This document shows positions 2,033 to 10,138 of a stretch of DNA of 36,904 nt, piece after piece; position 1 is the first letter of the stretch; each line of letters begins with the position of its first letter. The notes beneath the pieces are model-generated. The model searched no databases and had not been told where the DNA came from. It saw only the letters and a program-made list of their open reading frames with translations. The position numbers and the translations under genes are program-made. The stretch covers positions 1 to 36,904 of the IMG/VR virus record IMGVR_UViG_3300042347_000200, one strand, 5' to 3'. This DNA comes from a virus. Lineage: Duplodnaviria > Caudoviricetes.

Positions 2033-2209
2033 GTGGGCATTACAGGCGTTTTGCGCCTCTTGTGCCGTAGGGTATTGCCCGATGGTAGTCCGTGCCGTTT
2101 GCGGGCCGTGTAGGGCCGCGTAGTGGGTAGGATAGCGGATTATGAGATAGTCGTCGGCGCGCATTGTGATCTTTCCCGTTCGCGTCCAGGCTAATTTGTC
2201 AGAATTCAC
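2009..2209 (-). CDS. Hypothetical protein (66 aa)
   Basis: GTG start overlaps the primase 3' end; C-terminal YPTAQEAQNACNAH looks like small phage proteins. Confidence 0.55.
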   Translation of the reverse strand: MNSDKLAWTRTGKITMRADDYLIIRYPTHYAALHGPQTARTTIGQYPTAQEAQNACNAHKEKAPCE

Positions 2210-4742
2210 GTTCGGCCCATGCAGGCGCAGCAGCAGGCACTATATCAAGTCCGGTAATGTGCATAATACCTCCAGATTTGACACGCTCAAATCCTCGCTG
2301 TTCAAGCTCCTGCACAAATCCCTTCTGGGCTTGCACTCCCTCTCCGGCAGATTCAACGAATTTAGAGTAACTCGTATAGGCATCAATCGAACGGCACCGT
2401 TTGCCATGCGCCACCGTGCAGCATTCTTCTAGCCATGCGCCTAGCGTGTCCTCTGCATTCAAGTAATCAGCAATTGCAGCATCCACCGCAGCAGGCCGGG
2501 ACATACCTTTGCTGCGCCATGCTTCGCCACCACGGATTGCCCATGCAAGTATTCCAGGCATTTCAGCGTCAAGCAATTCGCGGATGTTCTCTATCTTCTC
2601 GCCATCCTTGAATGATGATGGGAAATTGACTAGATGGATACGTCGGCGCATTTCCTCACCTACCGAGCGCAGGCGGGGTTTGTGGTTGCCTGCAATCGCC
2701 AGCTTGAATTGAGGGTCGAACTGGAAATAATCGCATCGCATGAATCTGGCTGATATACGATCCCTGCCGGTAAGCGTCTTGATGCGGGATTCATTCCAGC
2801 GTGAATTTTTCTCAGTTTCGGTCGCCGTTACCAATCGCGCCCCGGCAAGGCCGGCAATCTCGGTTGAGTGTTCCGCGCCCTTTGATTCTGAGAATGTCTG
2901 CATAGCTGCGGCTACGGAATAATCGCCGGCAAGCTCGCGCAGGACGTGGATAAATGTACTCTTGCCACTACCGCCAGGGCCATAGACAAACAGGAAACAC
3001 TCGAAACGAGTATCCCCTGTCAAAACGTAATAGCACCATCGGCGCAGGTATTCCACCATCTCCGGGCCACCGTGGGCGCGTTCAAGGACGGACATAAACA
3101 TGGGGATGTCTTTTTCTTCGCACCTTGAAAAGTCTGGCGTGACTTTGGTGCTTTTGGTTATGTAGTGATCTGGACTTGAATCGGATAGCGTTGCAGTTTG
3201 AAGATCAACAACTCCGCCCGGAGTGCTTAACAGAAATATGTTCGAGTCGAATGTTTCGGGGACTGTGCATTTCAGGATTCTGGCAACCTTCTCCACCTTC
3301 TCGATTTTCGGCAGGTCGCACAATGCGCGCCGCGCTGTATCGGATAGTCGCAGGGACATATCCCACCCACTGACACTTACAAGGTGCCGAAGGATTACCT
3401 TACGCGCCGAGTTAGTCCTATCCTTTTCCCAAATGCTGCCGTTCCAGTGCATCCATTTATCCCATTCCGTAACGAACACCCAGTCCTTTCCTTGATTCTG
3501 TAACCAATATCCCGCCATCGCTGGATCGCTGAATTCCGGGCCATCGGGTTCCTCGTCGGCTTTGATAGCCGTATGCCTTGCAACCTTCGCCGGCTTTATC
3601 GCAGGCGCATCGGCTATCTCTGTCGGCTGCACATCAATGGTTAGAGGTATATGCTGCGGCTCTATATCGTCGTCTATGGGTGGCAGATCGTATTCAGACC
3701 AGTCCTCCATTGGGAGCGGATTCATCGGCTCAGGCTCGCCGGCTTGCGCGGATTGCATAGTTTTTTTTTCCTCCTCAAGCCTTTGCTTTTCGAGTTCTCT
3801 GCTGCCGAGTTTCGATACCCTCGGCGCGGCCCATGCCATCAATGCTTCTTTGCTCATCCCCTCCGATAAAGCATCGGCAACATCCCACTTGTTAGGCTTG
3901 TCGCTTGTATCGAGGATGCTAACTTTACACCCAAGGGGGAGCAGGTAGCTAGCCACCTTGAACATTGCTGCCTCACCGACTCCGGTAAGGTCGGCATCAG
4001 GTATCAACAATACATCACGCCCTGCCAGTGGCGTCCAATCGACTCCGGCTATGGCATTGGCACCACCAGGCCATGCTATGCCTATGCGCGAGGCCCAATA
4101 GTGCCGCGAGGCATCGGCGGCTTTCTCGCCTTCGCTGATGACTACCTTTGCTGATGGATTCGCGGTCAGCAGATCGAGGCCGTATATCGGTCGCCGTCCA
4201 TGCGTCCATGCCTTGCTCATCCACTTCGCGGATACGTTGGTGGAGTAGCTGCCATAACTCCACGGGCGATAGTCCTTGTCGCCACCGGGCTTGACGTAGC
4301 GCACCACGTAGCCGAGTAGTGCGCCATCAGCGTCCAGGTACGTCCAGTGCGCGACGTAGGTAAGGTTTTTTATGCTGAAGTCGGTCAACGGTTCCGGTGC
4401 CACCTGATGCTGCCACGTCGCGGCTTTGATTGGCGCTTCGGCTTTGATGCGGGTATCGTCGCGCTGGAATCCGTTGGCGCGCAAACGCTTGATCGCTTCG
4501 CCTTCGTCGCAACCGTCCATCTCCATGACAACATCAATGACGGTGCCGCCGCGCCCGCAACTCTTGCAATGACATTTTTGTACTCCGTCCTTTATATAGA
4601 CCTGCATACTCGGCTTCGATTCGTCGTGGAATATGCAAAGGCAGTCGTATTCGTTTCCGCGCTGCTTTAGTTCGACGCCGTAGCCGGTCAGCAATGTGAC
4701 CATGTCCACGGATCGCTTGAGGGCGTCAAGATCGTCGGTCAT
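2199..4742 (-). CDS. Primase-helicase: CHC2 Zn finger + TOPRIM + D5/P4-alpha-like SF3 helicase
   Basis: CIFHDE...CKSC zinc finger; EGEKAADA and DAD TOPRIM motifs; Walker A GPGGSGKST; IKTLTGRD..SARF; GNHKP; RRRIHL. Start set at ATG 4742 behind AAGGAG RBS. Confidence 0.92.
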   Translation of the reverse strand: MTDDLDALKRSVDMVTLLTGYGVELKQRGNEYDCLCIFHDESKPSMQVYIKDGVQKCHCKSCGRGGTVIDVVMEMDGCDEGEAIKRLRANGFQRDDTRIKAEAPIKAATWQHQVAPEPLTDFSIKNLTYVAHWTYLDADGALLGYVVRYVKPGGDKDYRPWSYGSYSTNVSAKWMSKAWTHGRRPIYGLDLLTANPSAKVVISEGEKAADASRHYWASRIGIAWPGGANAIAGVDWTPLAGRDVLLIPDADLTGVGEAAMFKVASYLLPLGCKVSILDTSDKPNKWDVADALSEGMSKEALMAWAAPRVSKLGSRELEKQRLEEEKKTMQSAQAGEPEPMNPLPMEDWSEYDLPPIDDDIEPQHIPLTIDVQPTEIADAPAIKPAKVARHTAIKADEEPDGPEFSDPAMAGYWLQNQGKDWVFVTEWDKWMHWNGSIWEKDRTNSARKVILRHLVSVSGWDMSLRLSDTARRALCDLPKIEKVEKVARILKCTVPETFDSNIFLLSTPGGVVDLQTATLSDSSPDHYITKSTKVTPDFSRCEEKDIPMFMSVLERAHGGPEMVEYLRRWCYYVLTGDTRFECFLFVYGPGGSGKSTFIHVLRELAGDYSVAAAMQTFSESKGAEHSTEIAGLAGARLVTATETEKNSRWNESRIKTLTGRDRISARFMRCDYFQFDPQFKLAIAGNHKPRLRSVGEEMRRRIHLVNFPSSFKDGEKIENIRELLDAEMPGILAWAIRGGEAWRSKGMSRPAAVDAAIADYLNAEDTLGAWLEECCTVAHGKRCRSIDAYTSYSKFVESAGEGVQAQKGFVQELEQRGFERVKSGGIMHITGLDIVPAAAPAWAEREF

Positions 4743-4897
4743 TTCTCCTTTCCTATCTGCTGTGCGCGCTGGCGAGTAACCCCAAGATGCACCCCGATGG
4801 CCGTCCATGTAAGCCCCTGCTTGCGTAGTTTGCGCGCCTCTTTCTTACGCGACTTGCTCGCATCCAGTAGTTGCCGATATATCTGTTTAGTTTTCAT
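4739..4897 (-). CDS. Small HTH DNA-binding protein (52 aa)
   Basis: GLTWTAIGVHLGVTRQRAQQI HTH pattern; stop overlaps the primase start. Confidence 0.75.
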   Translation of the reverse strand: MKTKQIYRQLLDASKSRKKEARKLRKQGLTWTAIGVHLGVTRQRAQQIGKEK

Positions 4898-4915
4898 TTG
4901 GTTTGCAATTAGGTG

Positions 4916-4943
4916 TTGACACGGCGAATGATATGGGTAGAAT
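4916..4943 (+). promoter_or_regulatory. Sigma70-type rightward promoter for the early operon and cassette array
   Basis: TTGACA (4916-4921), 16 bp, TAGAAT (4938-4943). Confidence 0.7.
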
Positions 4944-4956
4944 CCGTCACTGTCAA
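4928..4956 (-). promoter_or_regulatory. Sigma70-type leftward promoter for HTH/primase
   Basis: On - strand: TTGACA (4956-4951), 17 bp, TATCAT (4933-4928). Confidence 0.7.
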
Positions 4957-4983
4957 CTAACCAATCGAAAAAGGAACCGCACC

Positions 4984-5184
4984 ATGAAAGTCCGCCTGTA
5001 CCTCGTCGAAGAAATCGCCACCAAGAAAACTCGCCTGATCGAAGCCACCAATGCCGCAAGCGCAATGCGCCACGTTGCGGAGTCGCAGTTTAAGTGCGCC
5101 GTCGTTACTAGCACGTCCGAAGCTGCGCGGCTTGTGTCGGGCGGCATCAAGGTGGAGAGTGTGGGGAAGGGTGATGCGGTTTAA
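4984..5184 (+). CDS. Hypothetical phage protein (66 aa, MKVRLYLVEE...)
   Basis: AAGGA RBS; its TAA stop lies within the first attC-like core GTTTAAC. Confidence 0.75.
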   Translation: MKVRLYLVEEIATKKTRLIEATNAASAMRHVAESQFKCAVVTSTSEAARLVSGGIKVESVGKGDAV

Positions 5185-5245
5185 CGCAAAAGCTGTGGGG
5201 CTGGACGCCGCAGGCGGACAGTCCCACACGAGCGACGGGTTGTGC
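5179..5245 (-). repeat. attC-like site 1 (67 bp)
   Basis: GTTTAAC..GCT-GTG-GGG-CTG / CAG-T-CCC-A-CAC-G-AGC..GACGG-GTTGTGC; bulged T, A, G on the + strand 3' arm. Confidence 0.85.
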
Positions 5246-5269
5246 CCCGGCGATTGAACGGAGAACGAA

Positions 5270-5674
5270 ATGCAGCAACATGAACAACTGCGAAAGTACA
5301 ACCGGTGGCGGCGCGGCGACAAGCGCTTAAAGATGTCAGACCCAAAAGAACTCGGCGAACTAATAGACGGCGTGGCCGACCGGCTGGAAGTGCTGGAGCG
5401 CGAACACACGGAGTTCTTCGAGCGCTGGCACGGCGAGAGGCGGAGGCGGGAAAAGCTGGCGCATGACGTTGAGCGCTGCTACCGGATGCTGCTGTCTGAG
5501 CCAGACACGAAGGGCGCTCTATTCAAGGCCGAAAACATCCTGCGCGAGGCGCTGGGCGACCAGAAAGTCGGCTCTGGCGGCACGGCACCCGAGGGGCACA
5601 ACGACAGAGTGGAGGGGCGCGACGCAGCTTCATCGCGGCGCGTCCCTTCGCATGACGGGTTGGAGGGCAAATGA
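5270..5674 (+). CDS. Cassette 1 ORF, hypothetical (134 aa); C-terminus runs through site 2
   Basis: GGAG RBS; stop overlaps the next start (ATGA). Confidence 0.75.
   Translation: MQQHEQLRKYNRWRRGDKRLKMSDPKELGELIDGVADRLEVLEREHTEFFERWHGERRRREKLAHDVERCYRMLLSEPDTKGALFKAENILREALGDQKVGSGGTAPEGHNDRVEGRDAASSRRVPSHDGLEGK
5596..5665 (-). repeat. attC-like site 2 (70 bp)
   Basis: GCACAAC..GTGGAGGGGCGC / GCG-T-CCCTTC-G-CAT-GACGG-GTTGGAG. Confidence 0.85.
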
Positions 5675-6234
5675 CCCAGCGGCAACAAGCGCGGTTTGAA
5701 GGTTTTTCGGTGACGCACTCGAACCCGGCTGACATCGTGATGACAGACAGAGTGGTGGCGCGGAAGATTGTCGAGCACTTCCGTCCGCGCGGTACCGTGC
5801 TTGATCCGTGCCGGGGCGACGGCGCGTTCTTCGACGAAATGCCCGGCGCTGACTGGTGCGAAGTGAGGGAAGGCCGAGACTTTTTTGAGTGGAACACCCA
5901 CGTGGACTGGATTGTGAGCAACCCACCGTTCAGCATTTTTTTCGAGTGGCTGCGGCACAGCATGAGCTTGGCGGATGACATCGTGTATTTGATTCCGCTC
6001 GGGAAGGTTTGGCAGTCAAACAGGGTGCTGCGCATGGTTCATGAGTGGGGCGGGATACGGGAGATTCTGATTGTCGGCAACGGCAGGAAAGAACTCGGGT
6101 TCCCGGTCGGCTTTGCGGTAGGCGCGGTGCATTTTCAGAGGGGGTACCGGGGCGACATGCGCAACGGGTTCTTGCCCTCCAACGCCCAAGTAACCGGCGC
6201 TTCGCCGGCCCTTATGGCGAAGCGTCCGCGTTGA
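5671..6234 (+). CDS. Cassette 2 ORF, small N6-adenine DNA methyltransferase-like protein
   Basis: VLDPCRGDGAF (motif I), DFF and WIVSNPPF (motif IV). Confidence 0.8.
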   Translation: MTQRQQARFEGFSVTHSNPADIVMTDRVVARKIVEHFRPRGTVLDPCRGDGAFFDEMPGADWCEVREGRDFFEWNTHVDWIVSNPPFSIFFEWLRHSMSLADDIVYLIPLGKVWQSNRVLRMVHEWGGIREILIVGNGRKELGFPVGFAVGAVHFQRGYRGDMRNGFLPSNAQVTGASPALMAKRPR

Positions 6235-6248
6235 CTGAAATGTTGGGC
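6177..6248 (-). repeat. attC-like site 3 (72 bp)
   Basis: CTCCAAC..AGT-AAC-CGG-CGCTTCGCC / GGCGAAGCG-T-CCG-C-GTT-G-ACT..GTTGGGC. Confidence 0.9.
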
Positions 6249-6270
6249 GGAATTTTTACGGAGAAATGAC

Positions 6271-6669
6271 ATGAACGGACGAATACTCACCTGCGTTTAT
6301 TGCGGGCACGAATACCCACAGGACACGCCGGCAGCAGGAAGCCAGGTGCTGACGGAGCACATCAAGGTTTGCGAGCGGCACCCGATGCGGAAGGCCGAAG
6401 GCGACATTGCCCTGCTGCGCGGCGCGCTCGTTGGCCTGATCGGCACAGACGGCGAGGATGATCTGCGGCAGATGGAAGCGACGATGCGACTGTTGCCGGC
6501 ACCGGACGCCGACAAGGCGGTTTCGATCAACGCGATTCATGCGCTGCTGGCGACCATGCCGCCCAACGCACGAGGTCAGGCGACTGACGCGGCCTTATCG
6601 CGGCAGGTCGCCTGCACTGACGGGTTGTGCGGCAACGGTAACTACGGAGAGCAAAAAGATGGACGGTGA
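6271..6669 (+). CDS. Cassette 3 ORF, putative Zn-binding protein (CxxC...HxxxC); reads through site 4
   Basis: CVYCG and HIKVCERHP; GGAG RBS. Confidence 0.75.
   Translation: MNGRILTCVYCGHEYPQDTPAAGSQVLTEHIKVCERHPMRKAEGDIALLRGALVGLIGTDGEDDLRQMEATMRLLPAPDADKAVSINAIHALLATMPPNARGQATDAALSRQVACTDGLCGNGNYGEQKDGR
6561..6630 (-). repeat. attC-like site 4 (70 bp)
   Basis: GCCCAAC..GGT-CAGGCGAC-TG / CA-G-GTCGCCTG-C-ACT-GACGG-GTTGTGC; bulge identities differ from the other sites. Confidence 0.8.
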
Positions 6670-6901
6670 TGATATCAAGTGGGACAACAGGAGCATGCCT
6701 CATTACCCGAAGGGCATGCCACTTTGGCAGCGCATGATGTGTCTGCTTGGCTACCACAAAGCCGAGACGCGGCAGACCGCCAAGGGGCACTGCTACGGGT
6801 TCGAGACTGAGGAAGGCAAGCGGAAAGGCGTCTTTGGGCTGCACGACGAGACGCCGATGAAGCTGCGCGACCAGTGCGGCAGATGCGGGACGCTGCTTTG
6901 A
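6659..6901 (+). CDS. Cassette 4 ORF, small Cys/His phage-type protein (80 aa)
   Basis: GGAG RBS; MCLLGYH...CGRCG pattern seen in small prophage proteins. Confidence 0.65.
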   Translation: MDGDDIKWDNRSMPHYPKGMPLWQRMMCLLGYHKAETRQTAKGHCYGFETEEGKRKGVFGLHDETPMKLRDQCGRCGTLL

Positions 6902-6902
6902 C

Positions 6903-6973
6903 GTACAACGCCGACCATGAGGGGCGACAAAAAGCGTAGCTTTTTGGCGTCCCTCTCGATGAACTAGTTGGGC
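6903..6973 (-). repeat. attC-like site 5 (71 bp)
   Basis: GTACAAC..CAT-GAGGGG-CG..CAAAAAGC-GTA-GCTTTTTG..CG-T-CCCTCTC-G-ATG..GTTGGGC. Confidence 0.85.
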
Positions 6974-6998
6974 GGCTGCGCCCGGAGAGGCAACAACG

Positions 6999-7256
6999 AT
7001 GGCAACGATAGCCGAAAAGAACTTTGAGAAAGCCCTGCTTGATCTGGCGGGCGAGGATGTTTCAACCGCCCTGTCTGTGCTGACCGGGTGCTTTGTCAGC
7101 CTGACCCTTGAGGTGCTGCGCCGAAAAGGCCACGTTCCTGACGGCGACATCAAGATCGACGGCGGCGACCAGCGGGACATCACGATTCATCCGCCAAAGA
7201 CGCCCAACGCAAAAGTCAGCGGTGCCGGAACGGCGTCCGCTGGACTGCCGGGTTAG
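6999..7256 (+). CDS. Cassette 5 ORF, hypothetical (85 aa); tail encoded by site 6
   Basis: GAGG RBS; ends PNAKVSGAGTASAGLPG, the translation of the hairpin. Confidence 0.75.
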   Translation: MATIAEKNFEKALLDLAGEDVSTALSVLTGCFVSLTLEVLRRKGHVPDGDIKIDGGDQRDITIHPPKTPNAKVSGAGTASAGLPG

Positions 7257-7258
7257 CC
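7202..7258 (-). repeat. attC-like site 6 (57 bp)
   Basis: GCCCAAC..AGT-CAGCGG-TGCCG-GAA-CGGCG-T-CCGCTG-G-ACT..GTTAGCC. Confidence 0.9.
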
Positions 7259-7271
7259 AACAGGAGGAAAC

Positions 7272-7547
7272 ATGAAACAAGAGATTGCGGAACTGGAACA
7301 AATGCAAAAGCGCCTAGCCGAGATAAAGGCGCTGGCCGAAAAGAATGCAGCGGAACGCGAAGCGGGCGGATGCTACGACGACGAATTGCTGGCCGAGTGC
7401 ATGAGCGTGCTTGAGTATGCGACGTACCATGACGGGCGCTATGGGCAAGACCAAAACTGGGAGAACTTCCAGAGTCCAGCGCAGAAGCTGGTGTTGCGAC
7501 TGGCGAAGCGGCTCGGGCGGAAAGCATACGATGGCTTTGGTGGCTAA
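7272..7547 (+). CDS. Cassette 6 ORF, hypothetical (91 aa)
   Basis: AGGAGG RBS; TAA stop inside core GGCTAAC. Confidence 0.75.
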   Translation: MKQEIAELEQMQKRLAEIKALAEKNAAEREAGGCYDDELLAECMSVLEYATYHDGRYGQDQNWENFQSPAQKLVLRLAKRLGRKAYDGFGG

Positions 7548-7614
7548 CGATCTAGGTAACCGGCGCGACGCCGGCCCTATCGGTGGCGCGTCCGTGTTGA
7601 CCGACGAGTTAGCA
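7542..7614 (-). repeat. attC-like site 7 (73 bp)
   Basis: GGCTAAC..GGT-AAC-CGG-CGCG..CGCG-T-CCG-T-GTT-G-ACC..GTTAGCA. Confidence 0.88.
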
Positions 7615-7631
7615 GGCAAACGGGAAGGGTG

Positions 7632-8336
7632 ATGATGGCTGAGAAAGTGACAATCGGGAATTGCGAACTGTGGCACGGTGACTGCCGCGAAGTGCTGCCG
7701 CTGCTGCCTGATTTTGACTTGCTATTGACAGACCCGCCATATGAGATCGGAACCGCATGGCACGGCGATTTTGCCGGGAAGAACGGGAAGGCCGCAATGT
7801 GGGGAACTGCCCCTGAGTGGGACAAACTTTGCGACGACGGCGTTTCTCTTGGGGTTCAGAAGGCGCAGGAGGCGGTTGTTTGGGGTGGGCATTTGTACGC
7901 ACTTCCTCAACGCTCGCGCTGGCTTTCTTGGGACAAGTGCCAGACTTTCAGCAGCGGCGACTTTGAACTCGCATGGACGAACGGAAGCGGGGCAACGCGG
8001 GTTTTTCGGATGTCTCGGATTGACGCATACCAAAACAGCGGCGAAGGGAAAGAACACCCGACGCAGAAGCCCACGGCCTTGATGGAATGGTGCCTGAGCT
8101 TGCACCCAAAGGCTCGGACGGTTTGTGACCCATTCATGGGCAGCGGAACAACTGGCGTTGCCTGCGCCCGGATGGGGTTGCAGTTCGTCGGCATAGAGCG
8201 TGAGCGCAAATACTTCGAGATTGCCTGCCGCCGAATAGAGCAAGCCTACGCACAGCCTCGGCTGTTCGAGGATACGAAAGTCGGCGCTGGCGAGACGGCG
8301 GTGCAGGGCGACATGCTTTTGCCTGCCAACGTCTGA
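7632..8336 (+). CDS. Cassette 7 ORF, N4-C/N6-A DNA methyltransferase (beta-class motif order)
   Basis: LWHGDC, LTDPPY, HPTQKP, DPFMGSGTTG and FVGIE; start may be 7629, 7632 or 7635. Confidence 0.92.
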   Translation: MMAEKVTIGNCELWHGDCREVLPLLPDFDLLLTDPPYEIGTAWHGDFAGKNGKAAMWGTAPEWDKLCDDGVSLGVQKAQEAVVWGGHLYALPQRSRWLSWDKCQTFSSGDFELAWTNGSGATRVFRMSRIDAYQNSGEGKEHPTQKPTALMEWCLSLHPKARTVCDPFMGSGTTGVACARMGLQFVGIERERKYFEIACRRIEQAYAQPRLFEDTKVGAGETAVQGDMLLPANV

Positions 8337-8391
8337 AATAACCGGGACACGCGGCATCATCGCGTGGCTCCGGTTGATTGACGGGTTAGCC
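8324..8391 (-). repeat. attC-like site 8 (68 bp)
   Basis: TGCCAAC..AAT-AACCGG..CACGCG/CGCGTG..T-CCGGTT-G-ATT-GACGG-GTTAGCC. Confidence 0.88.
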
Positions 8392-8432
8392 GGCTCCCGT
8401 TAAAGGCCGGCACAAGTTGGAGATAAAACCCA

Positions 8433-8594
8433 ATGAAAGCCACAATCGAAGCCGCAATAAAGAACCTGACCGAAAAGGCCCAAGCCGCAAAGCCTGACGA
8501 CGTGCTGAAGTACTCGCAGGCCGCGCTGAACTTGGCGCACACCGAAGCCACGCTGGAAGCAACGCGGCGTGAGAACGAGAAACAGAAGACGTAA
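8433..8594 (+). CDS. Cassette 8 ORF, 53-aa helical protein (MKATIEAAIKNLTEKA...), not in the supplied ORF track
   Basis: GGAG RBS; fills most of the cassette. Confidence 0.7.
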   Translation: MKATIEAAIKNLTEKAQAAKPDDVLKYSQAALNLAHTEATLEATRRENEKQKT

Positions 8595-8625
8595 TGAGCG
8601 GCCGTCACTGGTCAAGGCTGGTGAC

Positions 8626-8688
8626 GGCTAACGCTGGCGTAACCGGCGCTGAGCTTGCGAAGCGTCCGCGTTGACGCAAATGTTAGGC
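8626..8688 (-). repeat. attC-like site 9 (63 bp)
   Basis: GGCTAAC..GCGT-AAC-CGG-CGCT..AGCG-T-CCG-C-GTT-G-ACGC..GTTAGGC. Confidence 0.88.
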
Positions 8689-8706
8689 AACGATTTCGGA
8701 GGAAAC

Positions 8707-8886
8707 ATGGACAACTTTAACGACCTTTACCCGAAACAACGAACTGGTAAAGAGTGCAAGAAAACGGATTGCGACAGGCATAAGAATTATGTTGCATGGC
8801 AGTGCGGCACTTCAAGCCTTAGCTTCTGCATTGAGTGCAAACATGCTCACGTTTCGCAGTACAAGCGCAAGGTGTCTAACGGCTGA
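8707..8886 (+). CDS. Cassette 9 ORF, 59-aa Cys-rich protein
   Basis: GGAGG RBS; five Cys including CIEC. Confidence 0.7.
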   Translation: MDNFNDLYPKQRTGKECKKTDCDRHKNYVAWQCGTSSLSFCIECKHAHVSQYKRKVSNG

Positions 8887-8941
8887 AATAACCGGCGTGC
8901 CGCGCTTTTGCGGCACGTCCGGGTTGATTGATTAGTTCGGC
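8874..8941 (-). repeat. attC-like site 10 (68 bp)
   Basis: GTCTAAC..AAT-AAC-CGG-CGTGCCGC/GCGGCACG-T-CCG-G-GTT-G-ATT..GTTCGGC. Confidence 0.9.
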
Positions 8942-8976
8942 GTCTTGCCGGAGCCGACTTTTGAAAAGGATAAGCG

Positions 8977-9225
8977 ATGGACATTGAACAAGCGTGCCGT
9001 GCGTCTCGGCGCAACAGGGCCAAGGTGCAGGCAGCGAAGGAATGCGGCTGCTATTTCTGTCTCCGATCGTTCCCGTCAACGGATGTTGTTGATTGGGCCG
9101 ACCTGGACGAAATGACGGCGCTTTGCCCGCACTGTGGGATTGACTCGGTGTTGCCATCTGTGACGGACAAGGAAGCACTGATAGCAGCAAACGAACGGTG
9201 GTTCTGTGAGACGCCGAACGTCTGA
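8977..9225 (+). CDS. Cassette 10 ORF, small Zn-ribbon protein (82 aa)
   Basis: CGCYFCL...ALCPHCGIDSV; AAGGA RBS. Confidence 0.8.
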   Translation: MDIEQACRASRRNRAKVQAAKECGCYFCLRSFPSTDVVDWADLDEMTALCPHCGIDSVLPSVTDKEALIAANERWFCETPNV

Positions 9226-9279
9226 ATTCACCGGCCTGCGCGGCTTTTCGCGCAGGTCCGGTGGAATGACGGGTTAGCC
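9213..9279 (-). repeat. attC-like site 11 (67 bp)
   Basis: - strand reads GGCTAAC-CCGTC-ATTCCACCGGACCTGCGCGAAAAGCCGCGCAGGCCGGTGAAT-TCAGAC-GTTCGGC, a canonical top-strand attC layout. Confidence 0.92.
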
Positions 9280-9322
9280 GTGCGCCCGATGAAGGCACGG
9301 CAACACAACAAAGGAAACGACC

Positions 9323-9547
9323 ATGAATGAAGGATACGCAATGGAAATGGCAGCGAAGCAAGCGGGCGTACTTGGTGGCTACGCGAAAGACCCGATGCAG
9401 CAGATGACGTGCGGCGAGAATTTGGAGCGCAAGATTGCCGAGCAGAAGGAGCGGCTGGCGATGTTGGAAAACGCGATGGAGGAAATGAAAGCCACCGGCC
9501 TTTACAACGTGAAGATTTCCACCCTGCGCGACACGATGTCATGGTGA
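9323..9547 (+). CDS. Cassette 11 ORF, hypothetical coiled-coil protein (74 aa)
   Basis: AAGGA RBS; stop 1 nt before the terminal core. Confidence 0.75.
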   Translation: MNEGYAMEMAAKQAGVLGGYAKDPMQQMTCGENLERKIAEQKERLAMLENAMEEMKATGLYNVKISTLRDTMSW

Positions 9548-9548
9548 C

Positions 9549-9567
9549 GGCTAACGTTAAGTAGCCC
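9549..9567 (-). other. Terminal half-site (attI-like simple site or truncated attC)
   Basis: GGCTAAC-GTTAA-GTAGCCC; the core matches the site 11 end (ACGGCTAAC/GTTAGCCGT) but no hairpin body follows. Confidence 0.65.
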
Positions 9568-9585
9568 TACCGTGCAAGGTACACT

Positions 9586-9891
9586 ATGACCTATCGACTG
9601 ACCAAAAAAGCCGCACAGACCCGCCTCGCAGCCATGCGACGAGGCCGGGAGCGTGTGCGCTTGGACGGACCGGCGCCGGAATATCCGCAACCGCTACCAG
9701 AACTTCGTCGGCAGATCATCATCCGTGATTTCGACTTCGGCGAGAAGATTCACACGCTCGACCTGTACCGGACTGATCGCGTCGACTGCTACCGCGTGGT
9801 CGCCGATGGCGTTGAATGGAAAGAGCGCATCGGATGGTCGAAGATTCTGGCGGGACTGCGGAAATCCATGCCGCGTGTCGGATCAATTTAA
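9586..9891 (+). CDS. Hypothetical protein (101 aa)
   Basis: AAGG RBS; co-directional with the operon. Confidence 0.7.
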   Translation: MTYRLTKKAAQTRLAAMRRGRERVRLDGPAPEYPQPLPELRRQIIIRDFDFGEKIHTLDLYRTDRVDCYRVVADGVEWKERIGWSKILAGLRKSMPRVGSI

Positions 9892-9952
9892 TTGCGCGTT
9901 GTAAGTTTCGTGTAAGTTTCAGCAGGAGAATTACACACAAGGAGGTAGCACA

Positions 9953-10138
9953 ATGAAACCTGTACCGCAGTACCAAGCAACAGTAGAGCAGCAGCATCCG
10001 GCGATGGATGGCGTAGCAAATCTTATCGTAGTAGGGCAGACGTTCGGCACCCATGACGAGTGCTGGAACGCTGCTAAAGCGATGACGAAGTTTCCTGTCA
10101 TCCAGTTCAAGGAAGTTCATCATGGGCAGAAGTGCTGA
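9953..10138 (+). CDS. Hypothetical protein (61 aa)
   Basis: AAGGAGG RBS. Confidence 0.65.
   Translation: MKPVPQYQATVEQQHPAMDGVANLIVVGQTFGTHDECWNAAKAMTKFPVIQFKEVHHGQKC

Follow-up and report, generated by a model that had tools for sequence, protein, structure and literature searches.

The subject of this article is an array of hairpins and small genes in a freshwater tailed phage, IMG/VR record IMGVR_UViG_3300042347_000200. The "window" is the whole stretch that was analyzed, positions 1 to 36,904 of that record, a 36.9-kb genome classed as linear and 100% complete (CheckV), and its proteins include a primase, exonuclease VIII, a RecT-like protein, capsid, portal, and terminase. Eleven hairpins and one half-site all lie within 5179-9572, the 11 sites being packed into 4.1 kb. 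From the sequence comparisons set out below, we regard it as probable that this is a phage integron that lacks an integrase and has its cassettes running backward, so that the predicted crossover falls among the final codons of every gene, and that selection has likely fixed the asparagine (Asn) reading frame at that point.

All features of the array are given on the plus strand, which is the coding strand and, at every site, the bottom strand of attC. The array opens with backbone gene ORF0 (open reading frame 0; 4984..5184) and site 1 (5179..5245; core AAC at 5183, GTT at 5239). There follow site 2 (5596..5665; AAC 5600, GTT 5659), site 3 (6177..6248; AAC 6181, GTT 6242), site 4 (6561..6630; AAC 6565, GTT 6624), site 5 (6903..6973; AAC 6907, GTT 6967), site 6 (7202..7258; AAC 7206, GTT 7252), site 7 (7542..7614; AAC 7546, GTT 7608), site 8 (8324..8391; AAC 8328, GTT 8385), site 9 (8626..8688; AAC 8630, GTT 8682), site 10 (8874..8941; AAC 8878, GTT 8935), and site 11 (9213..9279; AAC 9217, GTT 9273). 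The series is closed by an attI-like half-site (9549..9572; AAC 9553) and by ORF12 (9586..9891), which encodes a 101-residue protein and occupies the position that intI has in related phages.

Seven of the cassette genes have no stop before the next core and read across it: ORF1 (5270-5674, in cassette 1, 5185..5601), which ends in HN plus a tail from site 2; ORF2 (5671-6234, in cassette 2, 5602..6182), a DNA methyltransferase-like gene (phrog_799, 1e-27) ending in SN plus a tail; ORF3 (6271-6669, in cassette 3, 6183..6566) and ORF5 (6999-7256, in cassette 5, 6909..7207), both ending in PN plus a tail; ORF7 (7632/7635-8336, in cassette 7, 7548..8329), an N6/N4 DNA methyltransferase gene (PF01555, 1e-20) ending in ANV; ORF9 (8707-8886, in cassette 9, 8632..8879), ending in SNG; and ORF10 (8977-9225, in cassette 10, 8880..9218), ending in PNV. 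Their stops are at 5672, 6232, 6667, 7254, 8334, 8884, and 9223. The other five ORFs upstream of a core bring their own stop. ORF0 and ORF6 (7272-7547, in cassette 6, 7208..7547) end on the TAA of the core; a TGA starts 8 nucleotides (nt) before the core in ORF4 (6659-6901, in cassette 4, 6567..6908), where an Asn-frame TTG overlaps it, and in ORF11 (9323-9547, in cassette 11, 9219..9554, the one nearest the attI-like site); and in ORF8 (8433-8594, in cassette 8, 8330..8631) the stop codon starts 38 nt before the core. On translation, all seven read-through ORFs cross the core reading AAC as Asn (HN, SN, PN, PN, AN, SN, PN), as a preliminary description of this DNA had noted, and recomputation reproduced every coordinate and stop position given there.

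The hairpins have the anatomy of attC. In 11 of 11 window sites, inverted cores RYYYAAC ... GTTRRRY flank an imperfect hairpin, and AAC and GTT are invariant; in the consensus fold these cores pair, the spacer is unpaired, a G and a T remain unpaired on the 3' arm, and compensatory changes are found in 13 of 18 pairs. The coding strand carries a G directly after AAC (11/11), a G at GTT-9 (10/11), and a T 7-8 nt 5' of that G (11/11); at site 4, the usual extrahelical G is replaced by C. A G after AAC, together with extrahelical bases, marks the recombining bottom strand of attC (PMC2727003), and the recombination point lies between A and C of RYYYAAC (PMC7439510). The marks of the window sites agree with the aadA7 bottom strand printed in the supplement of Qi et al. 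2023 (PMC9892861), in which phage attC of a similar build were recombined by IntI1, at five of the six sites assayed. An Rfam scan of window positions 4800-10000 (E up to 1) returned no match.

For a wider comparison, we surveyed 270 viral and 101 genomic loci, collected with three patterns and two proteins; the site model gave ~1,309 hits at a score of at least 20 and 0 in shuffles. The 628 distinct viral cassettes comprise 573 that are inverted (gene on the bottom strand), 13 canonical, and 42 unclear, and the 205 genomic cassettes comprise 17, 129, and 59, respectively. In the window, every ORF is on the attC bottom strand with its hairpin upstream, and none has the canonical order of a top-strand ORF followed by its own attC. 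IntI scores above the TIGR02249 cut-off in four of five genomes checked, and three of these IntI flank canonical arrays of the same site motif. Because the motif recurs in canonical IntI arrays, and because of the orientation counts, the hairpins are assigned to the true attC family, used backward in phages; the 11 window hairpins are attC sites with the genes encoded on the strand predicted to recombine, the bottom strand. Ordinary arrays are also present on some viral contigs: the cassettes of L255, L005, and L028 score as canonical.

The frame survey covered 571 of the 573 inverted cassettes, those with a callable gene end, from 159 loci (some on the same contig) and 437 protein families. 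Their genes read through the core in 294 cases, end on the core TAA in 108, and stop earlier in 169 (79 at -8 and 25 at -11); stop-less cassettes, as first described in the window, are confirmed, but only as about half of the set. Asn is the frame at 291 of the 294 read-through junctions, and frame usage over a larger set, a count that the preliminary description had proposed as a check, is not random. With one junction per family the figure is 229/231, at loci fetched by right-arm patterns it is 138/140, and in the IntI-anchored set it is 40/40, with 27/27 among the junctions new to the survey. As for the background, 2027 AAC triplets with an R-box-like context from long phage ORFs include 911 in the Asn frame, and internal AAC inside the cassette genes divides by frame as 1219:907:544 (Asn 1219/2670), which supplies the background. 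A chance of (1/3)^6, the value earlier attached to the seven window junctions, is too small given an Asn-frame background of ~45% and a TAAC that is uncrossable in the xAA frame; 7/7 gives p~0.004, and the 291/294 of the wider survey lifts the remaining doubt. An artefact of the gene caller was considered and rejected, internal AAC in the same ORFs showing the split just given and the window ORFs being recovered in 10/10 cassettes scored. Across 525 clusters, genes in the xAA frame read through in 1 of 103 cases, against an expectation of 38 for neutral stops near the core, and genes in the xxA frame in 2 of 101, against an expectation of 67. Read-through is near zero in both of these frames, and the sequences therefore point to a rule: a stop may be borrowed by a gene in the Asn frame, but a gene in either other frame has to bring its own.

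What is exchanged can be read from related loci. Cassettes 3 and 10 recur at 100% identity beside new neighbors and a phage-encoded IntI. The leader and ORF of cassette 3 are found in L184, beside attI and IntI, and cassette 10 is found from AAC to AAC in L097, also beside attI and IntI, where the identity spans 8878-9219 and window cassette 1 lies directly upstream. A match in L062 covers cassette 1 (5183-5603), and L055 shares the window backbone up to 5186 and again from 9550, with other cassettes between, which places the left border of the array at ORF0 and the right border at the half-site. Breakpoints fall at AAC in L097, L055, L062, L098, and L184 and at the run joints described below, a comparison that reaches the triplet and not the base within it. 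Over the 571 cassettes, the leader pairs with the 3' end of its own cassette at 6.4 of 9 positions beyond the core versus 4.0 of 9 in-array, and own-end pairing is the better of the two in 457 cassettes, the worse in 57, and equal in 57. In addition, the excised-circle form has the more stable fold for 10 of the 11 window cassettes. Judged from these comparisons, the mobile unit is the stretch from one AAC to the next AAC, comprising hairpin, leader, and gene, and the crossover is predicted at its left AAC, which is the right prediction because the sites are inverted attC.

Similarly, contigs that match this phage, from public lake and freshwater runs not labeled as its source, have AAC joined to AAC. 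The joint 6564->7546 is clean in X19 and X20 (one sample) and is short-sided and flagged in X16 and X18; the joint 9216->9553 is present in X5 and X7, from whose contigs cassette 11 is apparently missing, and X7 is without depth over most of that cassette. Runs X19-X22 are RNA runs in the form of contigs, carrying neither strand nor level, and the small-share X21 and X22 hold relatives only. These joints are differences between populations, not excision caught happening.

With at least two attC sites within a few kb and intI not found in the 36.9-kb record, the array is of the type known as a CALIN (cluster of attC sites lacking an integrase). In relatives, including L097, L184, L319, and others, intI stands next to the array. 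L319 is a prophage-like locus of seven inverted sites followed by a co-oriented intI, whose product scores 450 bits against TIGR02249 (cut-off 265) and is encoded at the matching genome position. A search with this IntI led to 62 viral loci, 33 of them with sites, which hold 75 inverted, 0 canonical, and 3 unclear cassettes. At the IntI-anchored loci a conserved attI lies 60-150 nt upstream of intI, its Asn frame mostly stops within ten codons, and the catalytic motifs are intact in 10 aligned phage IntI proteins. The half-site at 9553, whose Asn frame reads NVK and a stop, resembles the candidate attI of L318, upstream of its IntI, and is kept before ORF12 homologs.

In the window and in L055, L113, L135, L149, L234, and L239, the gene after the array end, in the place taken by intI in other phages, is ORF12 or a homolog, and a similar attI-like stretch lies upstream of the homolog in most of these six relatives. 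ORF12 itself has no Pfam or PHROG match, and its Atlas hit (0.79) to a hypothetical cluster is a lead only. A single origin of the phage IntI is not shown by a quick tree of 55 proteins: 21 of the 24 IntI from inverted arrays fall in one clade (Shimodaira-Hasegawa-like approximate likelihood ratio test, 85, unstarred) and 3 elsewhere, in a set that had been gathered using a member of that same 21-protein clade.

The proposal that shuffling swaps C-terminal tails was borne out in two ways. Cassette 1 ends in NG, NA, NV, or a 24-residue tail, according to its neighbor. Among homologs of ORF3 (771 found, 120 listed, and 105 anchorable), 77 of the 105 anchored ORFs have xN at the same place, followed by 67 distinct tails. 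In the 32 clusters whose members have differing downstream sites, the end class is kept in 27. Tails run from 2 to more than 30 residues, at least a quarter of them being one residue after Asn, and those in the Asn frame are uncharged, at -0.1 per 10 residues compared with +2.3 and +1.1 in the other frames. Two ORF3 homologs, P0028 and P0087, run past the Asn into long extensions, possibly in-frame gene fusions at the junction. A separate observation concerns a segment encoding KVGxGxTA, found shortly before the core in five unrelated families that include ORF1 and ORF7 (window 5563-5586, 7211-7234, and 8276-8299); it resembles the left arm of site 6 and may derive from an earlier attC tail that became part of the genes.

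Why the Asn frame should be the one in use was examined on 563 acceptors. A stop is reached by the next start in 95% of them in the Asn frame versus 75% and 75% in the other two, fusions to the next gene number 11 versus 69 and 56, and read-on of more than 40 codons occurs in 20 versus 113 and 114. In the window, 1 of the 24 site-frame pairs outside the Asn frame fuses to the next gene. The Asn frame encodes 8.5% Arg in phage sites and 16.3% in bacterial sites, the other frames being alike (25.0 vs 22.9; 15.6 vs 13.9); substitutions fall at its third codon position in 82/179 cases in phage sites versus 28/93 in bacterial ones; and across three hairpin-length classes its stops are present in 77-83% of phage and 48-94% of bacterial sites. 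We read the Asn-frame stops as largely an attC inheritance, which would then have been refined in phage sites by protein-level selection, a selection suggested by the fact that the difference between phage and bacterial sites is limited to that frame.

The further proposal that neighboring ORFs are often translationally coupled stands in part. As a general property it was rejected, since only 79 of the 563 acceptors fit it; among the 124 acceptors in which the Asn frame leaves the hairpin, however, 69 have its end between -12 and +4 relative to the next start, versus 46/238 and 34/220 for the other frames. The base before a gene's own TGA at -8 is never C (0/64 vs 22/120 in read-through genes, p 6e-5), and all five window junctions without read-through have ATG, GTG, or TTG at -9, in the Asn frame.

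The mechanism that we propose is as follows. IntI, predicted to act on the window sites in trans from related phages, prophages, or the host, would cross over at AA|C on the attC bottom strand, and thus inside the last codons of each gene. As the sequences show, genes in the other two frames bring their own stop within the cassette (the core TAA, or a TGA 8 or 11 nt upstream), and Asn-frame genes read on, taking a tail and a stop from the next cassette or from attI. We infer that the Asn frame won because attC already has stops there, with tails that are short, uncharged, and rich in Ala, Gly, and Ser, and with fusions rare. The other frames would give Arg-rich tails and would overrun the next start in roughly one case in four, and repeated re-pairing may compound this cost. 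More speculatively, the next gene might be expressed more readily when ribosomes translate into the hairpin, whether they read through or re-initiate at an Asn-frame start that overlaps the stop. The tails are more likely to be tolerated than to be functional.

It is important to remember that several points weigh against this reading. No tyrosine recombinase was found in the 36.9-kb window (no PF00589 match and no tblastn match). The sites and genes are related, so the counts are not independent; the gene calls come from our own codon-score caller, and phage sites served as the training set for the site model. The joint 9216-9553 was flagged "between: not known." Asn-frame stops as a phage invention had to be rejected, untranslated bacterial sites having them equally: a stop at +6 is present in 28.9% of those versus 31.4% of phage sites, and in-hairpin stops in 80% versus 81%. 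The preliminary description was right that an Asn-frame stop follows soon after every window site, but the idea that only this frame offers stops was also rejected, since both other frames stop at all 12 window sites. For a difference of 95% versus 75% to explain a 99:1 bias, re-pairing would have to be repeated many times or each event would have to cost more; by simple arithmetic, the advantage compounds to a ratio of 11 after 10 rounds and 126 after 20. Finally, Asn-frame starts near the core also occur in 46/72 canonical cassettes and in 98/228 on the untranslated bacterial strand, and a ribosome-binding motif accompanies 12/98 such starts versus 23/246 in the control. Re-initiation as a phage-specific trait is not supported, and because the start bias is shared with canonical and bacterial strands and ribosome-binding motifs are few, the start codons hint at re-initiation only faintly.

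The frame could instead be a by-product of how cassettes arise, if attC joined native genes at or near an in-frame Asn codon or if cassettes inherited a few ancestral 3' adaptor ends, and genes caught with and without attC speak for such an origin. ORF5 occurs without any attC in L104-L107 (match 3001-3210 in L104), at 89-93% identity and with similarity confined to the coding region, and three more cassette/non-cassette pairs were found among the 525 clusters (L163, L176, and L193), all such alleles being 82-93% identical. The similarity of the non-cassette alleles ends 1-29 nt before the core (L104, L106, L107, L163, L176, and L193), and L104 has an in-frame AAC where L103 has its core. The KVGxGxTA peptide common to five unrelated families before the core points the same way, as does the one consensus shared in all classes by the last 9-10 nt before it. 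Nevertheless, we consider origin alone an unlikely cause of the frame: AAC of coding DNA is in the Asn frame only ~45% of the time, 204 genes in the other frames do end within 18 nt of the core, 201 of them with a stop, and the lock holds across 229/231 families, with phage and bacterial sites differing only in the Asn frame. A bolder and still tentative possibility, which may well prove too ambitious, is that phages run an integron lineage of their own, with their own IntI and attI, a mirror-image cassette pool, and attC as a standardized in-frame protein joint; new cassettes would then come from IntI fusing attC to native genes near in-frame Asn codons, and the allele pairs would be genesis in progress.

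The tails might also be the point of the arrangement, shuffling acting as a protein-variation device that diversifies C-termini (half-life, binding, and localization), and the 67 distinct tails on one family, the spread of lengths from 2 to more than 30, and the long extensions of P0028 and P0087 are what such a device would produce. We find this quite improbable, since the tails are of low complexity, come from constrained hairpin sequence, and in at least a quarter of cases add one residue after Asn; non-cassette homologs end just after the conserved domain with unrelated residues, and 277 of the 571 cassettes never take a tail at all. Very improbable, in our judgment, is the idea of the hairpins as regulatory repeats, RNA or DNA, that a phage RecT-like annealase, and not IntI, exchanges through homology. 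The window does encode exonuclease VIII and a RecT-like protein, an integrase was not found in it, and some alignments extend 17-64 nt beyond AAC into the next hairpin, overruns that are expected from hairpin-to-hairpin similarity. Most breakpoints, however, are at AAC, even at attI, where only ~5 nt are shared; the extrahelical G and T are conserved, and identical cassettes lie next to phage IntI whose catalytic motifs are intact. A backward phage integron with a selected Asn frame is the reading that we retain.

Some other features of the locus deserve mention. A sigma-70-like promoter (TTGACA-16-TAGAAT, 4916..4943, plus strand), identified only by an 11/12 match to consensus, is the predicted driver of ORF0 and the array, from the array end far from the attI-like site. 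It is one of two divergent, overlapping sigma-70-like promoters at 4916-4956, each an 11/12 consensus match. With promoters distal to attI, the newest cassette would be the farthest from the promoter, the opposite of Pc in classical integrons. The window has three DNA methyltransferase-like genes (3-650, 5671-6234, and 7632-8336), two of them cassettes, whose likely role is protection against restriction. A small inverted repeat at 8601-8628, between the ORF8 stop and core 9, is possibly a separate hairpin. Among 50,697 cultured phage records none spans the array, the best match reaching 6%.

In the textbook cassette, attC comes after the gene and the crossover falls beyond the coding sequence; here the predicted crossover lies inside genes. 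What we describe is general and mechanistically coherent, a new form of integron cassette, not new recombination chemistry. The sequences themselves show the orientation, the boundaries, the lock on one frame, the swapping of tails, and the IntI encoded by phages; that IntI acts on these sites, why selection would favor the frame, and any influence on translation are inferences. The cassette pool is common to many phages, with one reading frame across 229 protein families, and shows how site-specific shuffling can be made compatible with tightly packed operons. It supplies natural protein-coding attC joints, of a kind previously engineered (PMC7439510), and accounts for a common class of odd C-terminal tails among database proteins. 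In addition, the cassette and non-cassette alleles at 89-93% identity offer a handle on how cassettes are made.

A literature search, with most subscription papers outside it, found no paper on inverted phage cassettes or the frame lock. Phage CALINs and integrons with DNA methyltransferase cargo were described by Qi et al. 2023 (PMC9892861), and one of 17, MW202573, is itself inverted, with four coding-strand sites and ORFs ending in MPNV, KPNV, and KSN plus a tail. Positions 2073-3732 of this record (L444) are the CALIN of their Fig. 2D, and Asn-frame read-through was seen in it here. By contrast, the accessible portions of that paper make no mention of inverted cassettes, in-gene crossover, or a fixed frame, and phage TJE1, which they assayed, is canonical. 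In the TJE1 array (L443, 77-1046), two ORFs enter their own attC and likewise read the core AAC as Asn (NNEF...). Canonical genes as a whole rarely enter their own attC (16/118) and are without a frame lock (6, 2, and 8 by frame).

Like classical integrons, the arrays have the same attC fold, extrahelical bases, AA|C crossover, and attI-intI geometry (PMC2727003, PMC4889954), and complete bacterial integrons also contain this site family. Unlike them, the phage genes are on the bottom strand with the hairpin before the gene, the crossover is predicted to cut the end of the gene, and wherever intI is present the genes point the same way as it does. ORF-11 of attI1 spans the crossover and borrows its stop from the incoming first cassette, and translation of short ORFs within attC, through hairpins, is reported to relieve a ribosome block (both reviewed in PMC8876359). 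ORF-11 is a single leader peptide of 11 residues that belongs to the platform, whereas here the genes involved are cargo genes, unrelated and numbering in the hundreds, on the opposite strand and in one frame. In the inverted integron-integrase group of Treponema (PMC4889954), intI and the cassette genes likewise point one way; that group flips intI relative to attC, whereas here the genes are flipped and the intI-attC relation is canonical. Synthetic attC sites placed in peptide linkers and in lacZ (PMC7439510) are also both coding and recombinogenic, and what was designed in the laboratory in that case is natural and frame-standardized in these phages.

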